From NCBI GenBank assembly GCA_031285625.1, contig JAITVV010000009.1:1-41230 (forward strand): 41,230 nucleotides of DNA. Direction: 5' to 3'. Below are positions 1 to 14,460 of this stretch, piece by piece. Both the position numbers and the translations under genes were made by a program. The notes beneath the pieces are model-generated. The model was not told the DNA's origin. It searched no databases and worked only from the letters and a program-made list of their open reading frames with translations. The stretch is from Prevotella sp. GTDB lineage: Bacteria > Bacteroidota > Bacteroidia > Bacteroidales > Dysgonomonadaceae. Every line of letters begins with the position of its first letter. Positions within the stretch are counted from its first letter, which is position 1.

Positions 1-261
1 AAAGGTACTTTCAATCTGACAGAGACCGGTGATACCTTTATCGATATGGAAGACTGGGGTAAAGGGATTATCTTTATCAATGGGAAGAATATCGGCCGCT
101 ACTGGCATGTAGGGCCACAGCAGACACTTTATATCCCGGGAGTGTGGCTAAAGAAAGGAGAGAATGAGATCGTTATTTTCGAACAACTGAATGATAAAAT
201 ACATTCTGAAGTCAAAACTGTAAAAGTACCTGTATTGACTAAGTTGAAAGTTTCCCAATAA
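1..261 (+). CDS. beta-galactosidase (GH35), C-terminal part; truncated by window start
   Basis: Frame open from base 1: [61 protein letters not shown], the typical GH35 C-terminal GRYW-GPQ-TLY motif. Confidence 0.85.
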
Positions 262-310
262 TATGTTACCAAATCGCAACCTGCTGTAGTATTTACATAC
301 AAAAGAAATA

Positions 311-330
311 AATAGGTCTACGACTTTAAA
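311..330 (+). repeat. copy of AATAGGTC-N3-GACCT mini-hairpin motif (AATAGGTC-TAC-GACTT)
   Basis: aataggtctacgactttaaa matches copies at 10858, 12001 and 12821. Confidence 0.6.
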
Positions 331-8336: not shown

Positions 8337-9551
8337 ATGAAGTATATAGATCTCTTTAATCATCTGAAAAAGATAGAAAATTATATGGACAGTGAGATTG
8401 AGATAAACGACAATCTTGTGATACGTAATTTTACATTTGAGTCTAACTATCGTTTTATTCTACCGGGTGGCTTGGGAAACAATGATGACTATGAGTTTAT
8501 TCCTAGTGTGCCGCAAGATTATGAGCCGGACGTAATTCAACAAATGCTGAATAAGAAAGACTCGGAGATAATGGAGAATATAAAATTCCGTTATCATGTG
8601 ATAATGCCAAAACGGGAAATGAAGGCAAAAGGCATTATTTTTATGTTCCACGGATTCAATGAGAAGTGTTGGCACAAATATTTTCCTTGGGCGGTACATG
8701 TTGCCGAAAAAACGGGAAAATCAATCGTGATGTTTCCTATAGCATTTCATATGAATCGTGCTCCGGCTATATGGAGTAGTACCAGGGAGATGTACCGTGT
8801 CAGCGAACAGCGTAAAGAACGCCACCCTGATGTTATTTGTTCCAGTTTATCAAATGTAGCTATAAGCACACGATTGCATAACAAGCCTCAACGGTTTATC
8901 TGGTCGGGACTGCAAACATATTATGATGTAATTGACTTTGTAGAACATTTTAAGGAGGGGTTACATCCTTTTATCGATAGGGATGCATCGATCGACTTTT
9001 TCTCTTACTCTATCGGTACATTTTTAGGGGAAATACTAATGATGAGTAATAAAGACGGCCATTTCGATAACTCAAAATATGCTACATTCTGTGGGGGAGC
9101 GGTATTTAACCGTCTATCTCCGGTTTCTAAATTTATATTAGACAGCGAGGCCAATGTTAGTTTATATTCATTTGTTGTAGAGCATCTCGAAAGTCATATG
9201 AAAAGAGATGAGGTACTCAGGCACTATATGCATACTCACCCCGAAGGCAACAACTTCAGAAGTATGTTAAACTATAGGTCATTAACGAAGGATAGAGAAA
9301 ACCGGTTCAAGGAAATGTGTAACCAGTTTTATGCTATTACCTTGGCTAAAGATGAAGTTGTTCCGACCTATGAGGTTATCAATACGTTACAAGGCTCATC
9401 CAGAGATATCCCTATTCGTATCGAAGAGCTTGATTATCCTTATAAATATATTCATGAAGATCCATTCCCGGCATTAGCAAAAATTGCAGATGAGGTCGAT
9501 GAACAATTCAGATTCACTTTTGATAAAATCAGTGATTTTCTTTCTTCCTGA
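8337..9551 (+). CDS. alpha/beta hydrolase-fold protein (DUF6051-like)
   Basis: MFHGFNE, FPIAFHMNRAP, elbow-like FSYSIG, C-terminal HEDPF. Confidence 0.65.
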   Translation: MKYIDLFNHLKKIENYMDSEIEINDNLVIRNFTFESNYRFILPGGLGNNDDYEFIPSVPQDYEPDVIQQMLNKKDSEIMENIKFRYHVIMPKREMKAKGIIFMFHGFNEKCWHKYFPWAVHVAEKTGKSIVMFPIAFHMNRAPAIWSSTREMYRVSEQRKERHPDVICSSLSNVAISTRLHNKPQRFIWSGLQTYYDVIDFVEHFKEGLHPFIDRDASIDFFSYSIGTFLGEILMMSNKDGHFDNSKYATFCGGAVFNRLSPVSKFILDSEANVSLYSFVVEHLESHMKRDEVLRHYMHTHPEGNNFRSMLNYRSLTKDRENRFKEMCNQFYAITLAKDEVVPTYEVINTLQGSSRDIPIRIEELDYPYKYIHEDPFPALAKIADEVDEQFRFTFDKISDFLSS

Positions 9552-9656
9552 TTTATATAGATAAAAAACGCTATAGCTGTAATTAAAATAAAATTATTTA
9601 TGCGTTTCATGACATTATTTTTTTATTTCATATTTTAAAGTCGTCTCAACTTTATA

Positions 9657-9793
9657 TTTTACCACAGAGTAATAAAAGGAGTCATAGGGAGTTTTTAATA
9701 TGTTATAATTGAAAGTCATATTTCAAGACATAAATGTCTATTTTTGAATTCATTATATATACTCCGTAGTACTCTGTAACTACATGGTTAAAA
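9657..9793. repeat. degenerate long inverted repeat (REP/MITE-like)
   Basis: ttttaccacagagt..gagtcatagggagt pairs imperfectly with actccgtagtactctgtaactacatggttaaaa; inner agacat-aa-atgtct hairpin. Confidence 0.5.
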
Positions 9794-9882
9794 GTCAAGA
9801 TAAGTTTTTTAGTTAATAGATAAGTAATTCCATAAACATCTATAGAAATTAGTTGTTTTATTGTACAAGAAAGTAAGCCGTA

Positions 9883-10362
9883 ATGAAGATTGACAAAACA
9901 AATGCAGTCCGTTTACTAGATAAAGAAAAAATTGAATATAAACTTATACCATATCAGGTTGACGAATCGGATCTTAGTGCAGTCCATGTGGCAGAGCAAT
10001 TGAATGAACCAGTCGAACAGGTATTCAAAACTTTGGTGCTAAAAGGTGATAAGTCTGGTTATTTTGTTTGTATTATACCCGGAGCAGAAGAACTAGACCT
10101 GAAAGCTGCTGCAAAAGTTTCGGGGAATAAAAGTTGCGATATGGTACCAATGAAAGACCTACTTAATATTACGGGCTATATAAGAGGAGCCTGTTCTCCT
10201 ATCGGTATGAAAAAGCAGTTTCCTACTTATATAGATGATTCATATAAGAATTTCGACTATATATATGTGAGTGCAGGAAAGAGAGGATTGCAGATTCAAC
10301 TTAATCCTAAAGATTTAATGGGGATTGTAAATATTGAGCCTGCAATATTAGTGAAATTGTAA
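9883..10362 (+). CDS. ybaK: Cys-tRNA(Pro) deacylase
   Basis: KTNAVRLLD, VFKTLV, TGYIRGACSPIG, SAGKRG motifs. Confidence 0.95.
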   Translation: MKIDKTNAVRLLDKEKIEYKLIPYQVDESDLSAVHVAEQLNEPVEQVFKTLVLKGDKSGYFVCIIPGAEELDLKAAAKVSGNKSCDMVPMKDLLNITGYIRGACSPIGMKKQFPTYIDDSYKNFDYIYVSAGKRGLQIQLNPKDLMGIVNIEPAILVKL

Positions 10363-10486
10363 TTTGTACATTCCATATTTGGGTATGTGCTTTTATTGGT
10401 AAAATAAAATGTCGAATAGCTATGTTTAATGACGTCTTTTTAACATCTTTATTAGTAAAAAAGGAAAATATAATAATAATAACACA

Positions 10487-10494
10487 TACCTTTG
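10487..10494 (+). promoter_or_regulatory. sigma70 -7 element TACCTTTG for oxidoreductase operon
   Basis: Exact TAnnTTTG 65 nt upstream of ATG 10560. Confidence 0.65.
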
Positions 10495-10559
10495 TATAGG
10501 GATCAACTAGAACACCCCATCAATTAAGAAAACAAGTCCTAAATAATTATTATACAGAA

Positions 10560-10790
10560 ATGGCCAAAATAAAAGGAACTGTAGTTGTAAACGAGGAGCG
10601 CTGCAAAGGCTGCAACCTCTGTGTAGTTTCATGTCCTTGTGACGTTTTGGAATTACAGCCCCGAAATGTTAATAACAGAGGCTATCACTATGTTTACATG
10701 AAAAATCCTGATTCTTGTATAGGTTGCGCTAATTGCGGATATGTATGTCCTGACGGATGCCTCACAATCTATAAGAAAAAATTTGAATAA
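10560..10790 (+). CDS. 2x[4Fe-4S] ferredoxin-like delta subunit of 2-oxoacid:ferredoxin oxidoreductase
   Basis: CKGCNLCVVSCP and CIGCANCGYVCP clusters; first gene of operon. Confidence 0.93.
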   Translation: MAKIKGTVVVNEERCKGCNLCVVSCPCDVLELQPRNVNNRGYHYVYMKNPDSCIGCANCGYVCPDGCLTIYKKKFE

Positions 10791-10857
10791 ACACTAACGA
10801 ATCATTATGGCATTTTGTCAAATAGGTTCGTTTTTAAATTAAATCAAAAAGTAATAA

Positions 10858-10876
10858 AATAGGTCTGCGACCTTAA
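10858..10876 (+). repeat. AATAGGTC-TGC-GACCT mini-hairpin before alpha subunit
   Basis: Stem ends at 10873, 13 nt before ATG 10887. Confidence 0.75.
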
Positions 10877-10886
10877 TCAAAAGCTT

Positions 10887-11969
10887 ATGTCAGAAGAAAT
10901 AGTTTTAATGAAAGGCAATGAGGCTATTGCCCATGCTGCTATAAGATATGGTGCAGATGGATACTTCGGCTATCCTATTACACCTCAATCGGAAATAATG
11001 GAAACATTAATGGTTGAGGCTCCCTGGAAAACAACAGGTATGGTTGTTCTTCAGGCTGAAAGTGAAATCGCATCAATAAATATGGTATATGGCGGAGCCG
11101 GATGTGGTAAAGCCGTGATGACATCTTCGTCGAGCCCCGGTATGAGCCTTATGCTTGAAGGAGTGTCTTATCTGGCAGGTGCAGAATTACCTTGCCTTAT
11201 GGTAAATGTAATGCGTGGTGGTCCCGGACTGGGAACAATACAGCCATCCCAGGCAGATTACTTTCAAACTGTAAAGGGTGGAGGACATGGTGACTATAAT
11301 TTAATAACATTAGCTCCTGCTTCAGTACAAGAGATGGTTGATTTTGTAGCACTAGGTTTCGACCTTGCTTTCAAATATCAAACTCCGGCAATGATACTTA
11401 CCGACGGCGTTATCGGGCAGATGATGGAGAAGGTAAAGCTACCTGCATTCAAACGCAGAAGAACCGAAAAAGAAATACGCGAACAATGTCCATGGGCTAC
11501 ATTAGGTAAGCCAGCTGATCGTAAACCGAATATAATCACGTCTCTCGAACTTGATCCTTACAAAATGGAGATAAACAATCTTCGTTTCCAGGCTAAATAT
11601 AAGTTGATTGAAAAAGAACTCTGTATGCATCAGGAAGTAAATTGCGAAGATGCAGACTATATTCTGGTCGCATTTGGATCTGCAGCACGTATTTGCCAAA
11701 AAGCTATGGAAATAGCACGTGCGCAAGGCATAAAAGTCGGTCTTATTCGTCCGATTACTTTGTGGCCTTTCCCATCCAAAGAAATTGATAAATATTCAAC
11801 TAAGGTTAAAGGAATACTTACAGTGGAAATGAATGCCGGACAAATGGTAGAAGATGTTCGTTTAGCTGTAAATGGAAAAGTAAAAGTGGAGCATTACGGA
11901 CGTTTGGGCGGAATAGTTCCAACCCCGAGTGAGGTAGTGGATGCTTTACAGAATAAATTCGATTGCTGA
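10887..11969 (+). CDS. vorB: 2-oxoacid:ferredoxin oxidoreductase alpha subunit (VorB-like)
   Basis: GNEAIA, GYPITPQSE, QAESE, MRGGPGLG, VEMNAGQM motifs; substrate specificity not provable from sequence. Confidence 0.9.
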   Translation: MSEEIVLMKGNEAIAHAAIRYGADGYFGYPITPQSEIMETLMVEAPWKTTGMVVLQAESEIASINMVYGGAGCGKAVMTSSSSPGMSLMLEGVSYLAGAELPCLMVNVMRGGPGLGTIQPSQADYFQTVKGGGHGDYNLITLAPASVQEMVDFVALGFDLAFKYQTPAMILTDGVIGQMMEKVKLPAFKRRRTEKEIREQCPWATLGKPADRKPNIITSLELDPYKMEINNLRFQAKYKLIEKELCMHQEVNCEDADYILVAFGSAARICQKAMEIARAQGIKVGLIRPITLWPFPSKEIDKYSTKVKGILTVEMNAGQMVEDVRLAVNGKVKVEHYGRLGGIVPTPSEVVDALQNKFDC

Positions 11970-12000
11970 AGGGCTGTCGATTGTTCAAAAAGAGTTTATT

Positions 12001-12020
12001 AATAGGTCTATGACCTTTAA
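12001..12020 (+). repeat. AATAGGTC-TAT-GACCT mini-hairpin before beta subunit
   Basis: Stem ends at 12016, 16 nt before ATG 12033. Confidence 0.75.
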
Positions 12021-12032
12021 AGTTTAAACATT

Positions 12033-12791
12033 ATGAGTACAAATATTATAGATCCGGCAAACTTAGTATATGCTAAGCCTGTATTGATGAATGATACAGA
12101 TATGCACTATTGTCCGGGCTGTTCACATGGAGTTGTCCATAAATTGATTGCCGAAGTAATTGAAGAAATGGGACTACGTGAAAGTACAATCGGTATAGCA
12201 CCGGTTGGTTGTGCTGTATTTGCTTACAGTTATTTAGATATAGATTGGCAGGAAGCTGCGCATGGACGTGCTCCAGCATTAGCTACAGCTGTTAAACGTC
12301 TTAACCCTGAGAAAATGGTATTTACCTATCAGGGAGACGGAGACTTGGCTGCTATCGGTACAGGAGAAACTATTCATGCAGCTAATAGAGGTGAAAATAT
12401 AGCCATTATCTTTATTAATAATGGTATTTATGGTATGACTGGAGGACAGATGGCTCCAACTACATTGAGTCAGATGAAAACTTCAACATCTCCTAACGGA
12501 CGTGATGTTCATGAGAGTGGTTATCCGCTAAAAATTCTTGATTTGCTTGCTCAACTGAATGGGGTATGTCTGGCTACACGCCAGAGTGTGCATACAGCAG
12601 CATCAGTTAAGAAGGCAAAGCGAATGATACGTAAGGCATTTGAGAACTCAATGGAAAATAAAGGAACATCGATAGTCGAAATCGTTTCTACATGTAATGC
12701 CGGTTGGAAAATGACTCCGGAGGCAGCCAATGAATGGATGGTAGAAAATATGTTCCCGGCATATCCACTGGGTGATTTGAAGAATCTTTAA
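12033..12791 (+). CDS. 2-oxoacid:ferredoxin oxidoreductase beta (TPP-binding) subunit
   Basis: YCPGCSHG, VGC, HGRA, GDGD..NN..YGMTGGQ TPP motif. Confidence 0.93.
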   Translation: MSTNIIDPANLVYAKPVLMNDTDMHYCPGCSHGVVHKLIAEVIEEMGLRESTIGIAPVGCAVFAYSYLDIDWQEAAHGRAPALATAVKRLNPEKMVFTYQGDGDLAAIGTGETIHAANRGENIAIIFINNGIYGMTGGQMAPTTLSQMKTSTSPNGRDVHESGYPLKILDLLAQLNGVCLATRQSVHTAASVKKAKRMIRKAFENSMENKGTSIVEIVSTCNAGWKMTPEAANEWMVENMFPAYPLGDLKNL

Positions 12792-12820
12792 AAATAGGTT
12801 TTAATACAAGAAAGTTATAA

Positions 12821-12840
12821 AATAGGTCTGCGACCTTAAA
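12821..12840 (+). repeat. AATAGGTC-TGC-GACCT mini-hairpin before gamma subunit
   Basis: Identical to 10858 copy over taaaataggtctgcgaccttaa; stem ends 13 nt before ATG 12850. Confidence 0.75.
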
Positions 12841-12849
12841 CCGAAGAGC

Positions 12850-13404
12850 ATGACACAGGAAATAATAATAGCAGGTTTTGGAGGACAAGGAGTATTGTCG
12901 ATGGGTAAGATATTAGCTTATTCCGGATTGATGGAAGATAAAGAAGTATCGTGGTTCCCTTCATATGGCCCAGAACAACGTGGAGGTACTGCAAATGTAA
13001 CTGTTATATTGAGCGATAATCCTATCAGTTCGCCGATAGTAAACGAATATGATATAGCCATTATACTTAATCAGCCTTCATTAGAAAAGTTTGAGTCATC
13101 TGTAAAACCTGGTGGTGTATTGATTTATGATCCCAGTGGCTTCCAGCATCCACCTACACGAAAAGATATCTATGTATACCAGATAGAAGCAGTGGATACT
13201 GCGGCTTTGATGAAGAATAATAAAGCCTTTAATATGATTGTTTTAGGAGGACTTCTTAAAGTGAGCCCTATGGTTAAACTTGAAAATGTTATGCTAGGAT
13301 TGAAAAAGTCCCTTCCTGAACGTCATCACGGATTATTGCCTATGAATGAGCAAGCTATATTGAAGGGTATGGAAGTTGTAAAAGAGATCCAGAAACCAAG
13401 CTGA
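12850..13404 (+). CDS. 2-oxoacid:ferredoxin oxidoreductase gamma subunit
   Basis: AGFGGQG, PSYGPEQRGG, NMIVLG motifs. Confidence 0.93.
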   Translation: MTQEIIIAGFGGQGVLSMGKILAYSGLMEDKEVSWFPSYGPEQRGGTANVTVILSDNPISSPIVNEYDIAIILNQPSLEKFESSVKPGGVLIYDPSGFQHPPTRKDIYVYQIEAVDTAALMKNNKAFNMIVLGGLLKVSPMVKLENVMLGLKKSLPERHHGLLPMNEQAILKGMEVVKEIQKPS

Positions 13405-13423
13405 CTTCGAAATCAAATATAAA

Positions 13424-13457
13424 TAAAAAAGGATAACCAATCGGTTATCCTTTTTTA
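13424..13457. terminator. bidirectional intrinsic terminator
   Basis: taaaaaaggataacc-aatc-ggttatcctttttta. Confidence 0.9.
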
Positions 13458-13479
13458 CGTTATATAATATTTAATTTTC

Positions 13480-14460
13480 TTAGTATGCCCATTTCAAATA
13501 TACGGCGCCCCAGGTGAACCCACCTCCAAACGCAGTTAAAATAAGATTATCGCCCTTTTTCAATTGCGACTCCCATTCGTATAAGCAAACAGGAATTGTA
13601 CCAGCACTGGTATTTCCATACTTCTGAATATTCACCATTACCTTATCCGGAGAAAGTCCCATGCGGTTACCTACCGCTTCGATAATGCGGATATTTGCCT
13701 GGTGAGGAACCAGCCAGTCAACAGTATCGTTTGTGAGGTGATTGCGTTCCATTATTTCTACGGATACATCAGCCATTTTAGAAACGGCATGTTTAAATAC
13801 AACTTGCCCCTCCTGATAAACATAATGCATATCTTTATCTACAGTTTCATGTGAAGCAGGATGAATAGAGCCTCCACCGTACATATGCAGGTGAGTTGTA
13901 AATGCTCCATCTACATGTAGTATCGAGTCCATCACTCCCTCTTCCTCTTCCGTTGGTTCCAACATTACAGCTCCTGCGGCATCGCCGAACAGAGGGCATG
14001 TTGTGCGGTCTTTATAGTTGGTAATTGAGGTCATTTTATCTCCTGCAGCAACTATTACTTTCTTGTATTTGCCCGATTTGATAAAATTTGACCCTATTTC
14101 CAGTGCATAAATAAAACCGGAACATGCAGCCTGTATATCAAATCCCAAAGCATTCTTGATTCCACACTTATCAGCGGTCAATGCAGCTGTGGATGGAAAT
14201 ATATAGTCAGGAGTTGTTGTTGCAAAAATAATTACTTCTACATCTTCGGGTTTTGTATTAGTTTTTTCTAACACTATTTTTACAGCCTCAGCTCCCATAT
14301 CAGATGTGCCTTTATCCTTAGCTAATACATGTCGCTCCTTGATACCTACGCGAGTCATAATCCACTCATCGGTAGTATCAACTATTTTGGCCATATCATC
14401 ATTTGTTAGAATGTCTTCTGGTATGTATGCACCAACACCGGTAATTGCAGCTCGAATCAT
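13480..14460 (-). CDS. fabH: 3-oxoacyl-ACP synthase III
   Basis: AACSGF catalytic Cys, [20 protein letters not shown]. Confidence 0.97.

Follow-up and report, generated by a model that had tools for sequence, protein, structure and literature searches.

Hairpins of a Dysgonomonas kor operon as probable shortened copies of a mobile repeat

Why should the same small hairpin precede three successive genes of one operon? The question is raised by the 2-oxoacid:ferredoxin oxidoreductase (kor) operon on contig C5 of Dysgonomonas genome G000 (4.84 Mb in 96 contigs, 37% G+C, 94% complete), a contig of 41,230 bases that is referred to here as the window. The operon comprises four plus-strand genes (10560..13404), and its assignment in an earlier note on this DNA holds up against Pfam: the delta subunit (10560-10790) matches Fer4, the alpha subunit (korA; 10887-11969) POR_N and PFOR_II, the beta subunit (korB; 12033-12791) TPP_enzyme_C and the gamma subunit (korG; 12850-13404) POR. 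A pattern scan for AGGTC-N3-GACCT finds exactly three matches in the window, at 10861-10873, 12004-12016 and 12824-12836 with loops TGC, TAT and TGC, respectively, and none of 100 dinucleotide-preserving shuffles of the window contains any. One hairpin lies in each of the three spacers, all in one orientation, and the ATGs of alpha, beta and gamma (10887, 12033 and 12850) lie 13, 16 and 13 nt downstream of their 3′ ends, just as the earlier note had described. That note considered a per-cistron site for an RNA-binding protein or for processing that sets subunit stoichiometry, a transcription factor site, or a dispersed mini-REP. The reading favored here, at a probability of roughly 0.85, is that the kor hairpins are shortened copies of a mobile repeat of Dysgonomonas that resembles MITEs (miniature inverted-repeat transposable elements), and not a conserved control element of the operon.

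The repeat family and its copies in the kor operon

Across G000 there are 46 exact AGGTC-N3-GACCT hairpins, against approximately 2 expected from base composition, and none of the 46 overlaps an open reading frame (ORF), though ORFs, crudely called, take up 88.6% of the genome. Once oriented, most of these hairpins turn out to form the final 13 nt of a longer, gene-less repeat of 86-98 nt. A profile built from 20 copies of this repeat has 60 matches in the genome at E<0.01, of which 38 are full length and 58 lie between ORFs; together with the exact hairpins that have no profile match, these amount to 71 copies. A full copy has AG at its left tip and CT at its right and sits between two TA dinucleotides, and its right end consists of an A-rich stretch followed by a hairpin of 5 bp with a 3-nt loop, AGGTC-TGN-GACCT. 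On the sense strand the loop reads T-G-N in 37 of the 46 hairpins and does not vary as freely as the earlier note had supposed; that note's appeal to C(GNA)G triloops applies to the copies with a TGC loop (9/46) and not to the others.

Among the genomes searched, the repeat appears to be confined to Dysgonomonas. In a comparison set of 35 Dysgonomonas species genomes, a covariance model detects it in 27, with 0 to at least 104 matches in each genome, and a strict 17-mer of the hairpin end occurs 0-38 times per genome and is absent from 15, with the reversed control giving 0-1. The covariance model has no match in 139 other Bacteroidales genera, and no match to the repeat was found in plasmids, phages or viral contigs, the last of which were searched with a 26-mer. 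Neither the region 9500-14000 of the window nor 20 full copies have a relevant match in Rfam (Rfam 15), the best hit of the latter (E 0.92) being an unrelated Enterococcus small RNA, and the literature on Dysgonomonas and Bacteroidales repeats and on Bacteroidetes MITEs yielded no description of the repeat. The earlier note's suggestion of a dispersed mini-REP was essentially right. The repeat constitutes a previously unnamed, genus-restricted family of a familiar kind, the small mobile repeats of intergenic DNA (MITE/REP-like).

The three kor copies, all on the plus strand, align only to the last third of the repeat profile. The copy in the delta-alpha spacer (10842..10873, approximately 31 nt) is a right-end module with its hairpin at 10861-10873 and TA(A) on both sides; nhmmer places it at profile positions 64-97, and relative to the spacers of congeners it is a clean extra block. 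In the alpha-beta spacer, the copy (11990..12018) is recognized by its exact hairpin and measures 19-32 nt, its left boundary being ambiguous; congeners read TTCAAAGTTTAAA...ATG here, without a hairpin. The copy in the beta-gamma spacer (12791..12836, approximately 45 nt) joins a left-end piece to the hairpin and lies directly at the beta stop codon TAA, where the congener spacers start TAA-A... and span 6-30 nt. The segment AATAGGTC...GACCTT is common to all three copies, and the approximately 12 nt upstream of each hairpin are also alike, which runs counter to the earlier description of the rest of each spacer as unrelated. The first and third copies are mutual nearest relatives among the 46 hairpin modules (4/34 differences), a likeness that suggests local copying. 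Extra half-sites had also been reported, and the AAATAGGT words are indeed present at 10820 and 12792, the former being the 3′ arm of a separate stem-loop and the latter the start of the 45-nt insert. The window holds a fourth, longer copy of the repeat, on the plus strand at 257..330 (profile positions 22-97, nhmmer E 1.4e-6).

Among 23 congeners with a colinear kor operon, 20 have no hairpin in any kor spacer. Such absence from orthologous spacers had been named in the earlier note as evidence against its per-cistron element, and neither a protein-binding or processing site that sets stoichiometry nor a transcription factor site is supported by these operons. The delta-alpha, alpha-beta and beta-gamma spacers of G000 measure 96, 63 and 58 nt; in the congeners the first is typically 43-73 nt (extremes 23 and 92), the second 13-42 nt and the third 6-30 nt. 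Hairpins do occur in G019 and G022, which have a common one in the alpha-beta spacer approximately 10 nt farther from the ATG than in G000, and in G003, where a full copy occupies the delta-alpha spacer at a TAA that is empty in G017. The alpha-beta spacer of G016 (L009) has a 13-nt match to the pre-hairpin stretch directly before the korB ATG and no hairpin; this could be what is left of yet another independent insertion, or native A-rich leaders may resemble the stretch by chance. Within the species itself, contigs at least 99% alike from three other samples bridge the kor spacers with the hairpins intact, and the kor insertions are therefore fixed in the species; an RNA-library sample (X6) yielded relatives below 95% identity and none closer.

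Insertion, decay and position of the copies

The repeat is present in some genomes and absent from others at orthologous sites. At one locus, G003 has a full copy and a short copy, G042 has the short copy only, and G005 is empty; at another, a copy is present in G005 and absent from G017, G042 and G003. Both loci read ...T-TA-[AG...CT]-TA-T... when filled, with an 86-nt block, and ...T-TA-T... in the empty genomes. In six full G000 copies the left flank is TAAG and the right flank is TA followed by G, C or T, so that the repeated word is TA (2 bp) and not TAA; the latter, considered as a duplicated target, was rejected on these six copies and the two empty sites. In keeping with what defines a MITE, the element is, at 86-98 nt, below a length of approximately 500 bp, has no coding capacity, occurs in many dispersed copies and displays insertion polymorphism with a short TA direct repeat, at the two loci above and in the kor spacer of G003. 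In G003 (L137, approximately 1501-1640), a full copy in antisense and a short one in sense stand nearly back to back, with their left ends approximately 7 nt apart and their hairpins pointing outward, an arrangement that shows nested or adjacent re-insertion at one site.

A copy upstream of an rlmB-like gene is common to G000, G019 and G022, and is full length in the latter two but carries a 58-nt internal deletion in G000. Given this deletion and the left-end piece kept in the 45-nt kor copy, the short forms are read as deletion derivatives; 5′-truncation as a retrotransposition-like signature, which right-end-only fragments had raised, was set aside on the same two observations. At this site (contig C4 of G000, approximately 61.86 kb; L158 and L159), the gene's upstream neighbor is an ORF that continues into the repeat and owes its last residues and stop codon to element sequence; this stop is TAG in G000, where it overlaps the hairpin, and TAA in G019, where it lies inside the element. 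Like this shared copy, another one is old; it is common to four species, in one of which its hairpin has decayed. The decay of the hairpin in some orthologous copies argues against any general requirement for it.

The copies lie in preferred positions relative to genes. The exact hairpins of G000 comprise 35 in sense and 10 in antisense orientation (40 and 19 among the profile matches); 25 of the 35 sense hairpins are 6-29 nt from a downstream ATG, and 6 of the 10 antisense hairpins are within 1 nt of the stop codon of a convergent gene, most of them sharing a base with it. Ten divergent intergenic regions contain a full copy, and in every one of them the distance from one end of the element to a start codon is 5-23 nt; full-length copies near a start codon turn the hairpin side toward it in approximately 18 cases versus the other side in 12. 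One insertion is placed 5 nt before an ATG, so that the element itself provides the leader there. Relatives have the same pattern of orientation and distance, with 20 sense copies, 9 antisense and 1 undetermined (n=30). Genes of unrelated function follow the copies; named by eye from their N-termini, they comprise der-, aroK-, hisB- and rlmB-like genes as well as an epimerase and genes of the cell wall.

The copies are also clustered. Neighbor pairs closer than 2.5 kb number 10 in G000 versus 2.1 expected, a value that none of 2000 permutations reached, and triples number 3 versus 0.09 expected, kor being one of them. The other two triples run antisense to genes, with one copy per gene gap: one on C13 (approximately 75.2-79.6 kb) in a cell-division/cell-wall cluster, in the gaps ftsI-murE, murE-mraY and murD-ftsW (gene names by eye from N-termini), and one on C49 (approximately 2.2-3.9 kb) in a small array of genes. 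In all three clusters, the copies inside a cluster share the same orientation. The orientation, ATG proximity and clustering of the kor copies are, in other words, habits of the whole family; position and orientation across the genome are far from random, as the earlier note had expected of a functional motif, and this holds for the whole repeat family and not for kor specifically. In 48 of 70 G000 copies, orientation agrees with the local GC skew (Fisher p 0.006), and tandem genes on the leading strand have 24 sense and 3 antisense copies, those on the lagging strand 5 and 5. This signal, which is confounded by the clustering of copies and by the tie between skew and gene direction, hints at strand-specific insertion or selection.

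The hairpin is the most conserved part of the element. Across the 71 copies, stem identity is 96%, versus 68-81% for the remainder, and the stem pairs include 4 compensatory changes, 10 to G.U, 5 to A.C and 5 others. The consensus before the stem is ATAG (ATAG-GTC), with GTAG in a few copies only. When the 38 full copies were submitted to RNAalifold on both strands, the terminal hairpin was the sole predicted structure, and a column-pair scan returned mostly A/T-rich noise; an internal CATAAC...GTTATG stem showed apparent covariation by eye that could not be established. Single copies of the repeat fold with a mean z of -1.15, and the leaders around the hairpins are no more stably folded than shuffles (z -0.3 to -1.6). 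The hairpin itself has a modest folding energy, -4.6 kcal/mol in RNA form and about -3 in DNA form.

Weighing the explanations

According to the mechanism proposed for the mobile repeat, the element would insert at TA in the A/T-rich DNA that immediately precedes start codons, or on TAA stops, and copies would consequently accumulate in 5′ leaders and intra-operon gaps, often several nearby. They would later shrink by internal deletion, the hairpin end most often remaining recognizable. The kor operon would have gained its three copies once the species had separated from the nearest congeners sampled, two of the three probably being copies of one another, and all three would now be short remnants transcribed within the operon. 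Mobilization would be provided in trans by a DNA transposase, for which the TA flanks suggest the IS630/Tc1-mariner type, and the hairpin would be conserved mainly for mobility. Conservation of the stem fits a cis-acting site for mobility and equally allows a secondary role in mRNA. The kor copies themselves would be passengers that the operon tolerates and that affect the mRNA modestly at most.

A search for the mobilizing enzyme and several features of the family weigh against this account. No autonomous partner came to light: Y1 transposases are lacking in G000 (0 matches to PF01797), the two IS630-type DDE_3 genes of G000 lack ends similar to the repeat, and the flanks of 14 transposase loci bear no similarity to it. 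Presence of Y1 and DDE_3 does not track copy number in the 35 genomes (Y1 occurs in 15 of them, and G042, with 95 copies, has none), and G000 shows no orphan left ends. By eye, the element has a weak terminal inverted repeat, limited to the 2-nt AG/CT tips and a TATTTA block approximately 13-18 nt from each end; the column-pair scan detects TAAG/CTTA. TA on both sides cannot alone separate a duplication from a terminal TA of the element's own. Short forms located via the hairpin almost all run in sense and lie near an ATG; at least three lineages, among them G019 and G022 with just 1-2 copies genome-wide, have independently received insertions in the kor spacers; and the stem identity with its 4 compensatory changes exceeds what is expected of a neutral passenger. 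The search for an enzyme also gave no DUF559 in G000, and no longer version of the element in G000 or in four high-copy congeners; draft assemblies may hide one.

It is quite unlikely that the element, having arrived by transposition, has been exapted as an mRNA element, its A-rich stretch and hairpin end being kept by selection near starts so as to tune each kor cistron; the roles proposed are a leader insulator or translation-initiation context, a stabilizer against exonucleases, and a protein-binding site. Bacteroidota largely initiate translation without Shine-Dalgarno pairing. A related proposal, to which similarly little credence is given, would make the right end a portable, self-contained leader that lands 5-25 nt before an ATG, replaces the native leader and allows or tunes translation; the hairpin would then be selected while the rest erodes, and the kor copies would be domesticated per-cistron leaders. 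Exaptation draws on the proximity of sense hairpins to ATGs (25/35) and of element ends to starts in all 10 divergent regions, on the insertion 5 nt before an ATG that makes the element the leader, and on the 24:3 excess of sense copies at leading-strand tandem genes. However, full-length copies near starts divide only approximately 18 to 12 between the two sides, three copies lie antisense in the cell-division/cell-wall gene cluster, and finding short forms via the hairpin biases the count toward copies that keep it. The hairpins are intact in all three shrunken kor copies and in the same-species strains from three other samples, yet the same operon runs without a hairpin in 20 of 23 congeners, and the hairpin has decayed in orthologous sense copies near an ATG (in G005, and in G019 and G022). 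A stem far more conserved than the rest, with 4 compensatory and 10 G.U changes against 5 A.C, also speaks for exaptation, but the RNA hairpin alone reaches no more than -4.6 kcal/mol, and the leaders fold no better than shuffles.

Two further alternatives concern the enzyme and the DNA itself. The same repeat might be moved as single-stranded DNA by a hairpin-recognizing enzyme, in the manner of REP/RAYT or IS200/IS605 systems and not by a cut-and-paste DDE transposase, with the right-end hairpin as recognition site and TA as the target or cleavage word. This seems unlikely. One strongly conserved hairpin at one end only would suit such an enzyme, as would the count of right-end-only fragments in four congeners (approximately 14, versus 3 with the left end only, all three of which proved to be ordinary copies), but the stem is just 5 bp, and a few copies with GTAG before it stand against a consensus of ATAG, not the GTAG/CGTC that defines REPs as outlined in PMC3733652. 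The single orientation inside each of the three clusters and the correlation with GC skew (48/70) are likewise consistent with strand-specific movement, although the skew signal is confounded with gene direction and clustering; and the 94%-complete G000 has no Y1 match, G042 has 95 copies without Y1, and the enzyme's presence in 15 of the 35 genomes bears no relation to copy number. A palindromic operator of a dimeric transcription factor, with a regulon that includes kor, is highly improbable. The perfect 5+5 dyad with its fixed 3-bp spacing, conserved in sequence beyond pairing alone, is what such a factor would recognize, but the sites are inside the operon, downstream of promoters, and precede unrelated genes; their counts range from 0 to more than 100 among congeners, they come and go with an inserted block of 86 nt, and they are absent from 20 of 23 orthologous kor operons.

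The mobile repeat can be set beside several known systems. It resembles the Correia elements (CREE/NEMIS) of Neisseria in its small, gene-less, many-copy form, its TA flanks and its sites near starts and in operons. Those elements are gene-less MITEs of approximately 100-150 bp, present in many copies between TA dinucleotides near gene starts and in operons, where they are co-transcribed with neighboring genes; they have long (approximately 26 bp), good terminal inverted repeats and fold end to end, and to our knowledge they have no obvious master copy. The Dysgonomonas repeat, in contrast, has almost no terminal inverted repeat and one small hairpin at one end, shares no sequence similarity with them and belongs to another phylum. 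RUP of Streptococcus pneumoniae, a non-autonomous intergenic element of approximately 100 bp with a TA target, has ends that resemble those of a resident IS630-family element. The Dysgonomonas repeat is similar in size, TA and intergenic location, but unlike RUP it has no counterpart among the two G000 DDE_3 genes and six from congeners, whose ends are not similar to the repeat. Elements derived from IS200/IS605 have subterminal hairpins at both ends and insert strand-specifically beside a fixed word of 4-5 nt by means of a Y1 transposase; in the present repeat only the right-end hairpin is supported, there is no Y1 in G000, its orientation correlates with GC skew, and TA may be its target word.

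REP, BIME and REPIN sequences are short extragenic hairpin repeats whose abundance varies greatly between related species and which occur in operons and in mRNA; the GTAG/CGTC tag defines REPs, and RAYTs are their transposases (PMC3733652). Set against that description, the Dysgonomonas repeat is alike in variable abundance and operon sites, so that the label "mini-REP" fits loosely, but its consensus is without the GTAG/CGTC tag and G000 is without RAYT/Y1. Its stem of 5 bp, flanked by A/T and placed at the end of an 86-98-nt unit, also differs from the 20-40-bp, G+C-rich palindrome by which REPs are characterized there. Porphyromonas gingivalis, from another Bacteroidales genus, is described as having MITE families (PMC4596501, PMC2575886); the comparison with these is by description only, and the 139 negative genera may or may not include Porphyromonas.

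Other structures of the operon and significance of the repeat

Apart from the repeat, the delta-alpha spacer contains a terminator-like stem-loop with a T-run on the plus strand (10797..10835), which holds the word at 10820. By eye, the same stem arms and T-run are present in most of the 23 congeners, with differing loop sequences, and the structure may be a conserved attenuator or terminator that sets the level of delta against those of alpha, beta and gamma. A strong terminator-like palindrome, to which no strand is assigned, lies at the operon end (13423..13458; a 16-pair stem in a consensus scan). Read along the operon, the kor hairpins are not followed by a T-run; those at 10861 and 12824 pass a loose terminator consensus scan (5 pairs and a T-rich tail) on the minus strand alone. 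In G025 (L025), which is from another family, the alpha-beta spacer is 218 nt long and contains an ATG-initiated open frame of approximately 55 codons, rich in hydrophobic residues, that may encode a small membrane protein inserted in the kor operon.

As the footprint of mobile DNA, the striking recurrence of one hairpin before every cistron no longer points to an operon-specific control element, and a false lead is removed. The repeat family will recur in annotations of Dysgonomonas, bacteria that are common in insect guts, and can mislead searches for motifs and small RNAs, while its insertion polymorphisms serve as markers of strains and species. The copies also constitute a natural experiment, in which essential operons, namely kor and the cell-division/cell-wall cluster, tolerate insertions of 20-95 nt a few bases before their starts, a tolerance that bears on how start sites are chosen without Shine-Dalgarno pairing in Bacteroidota.

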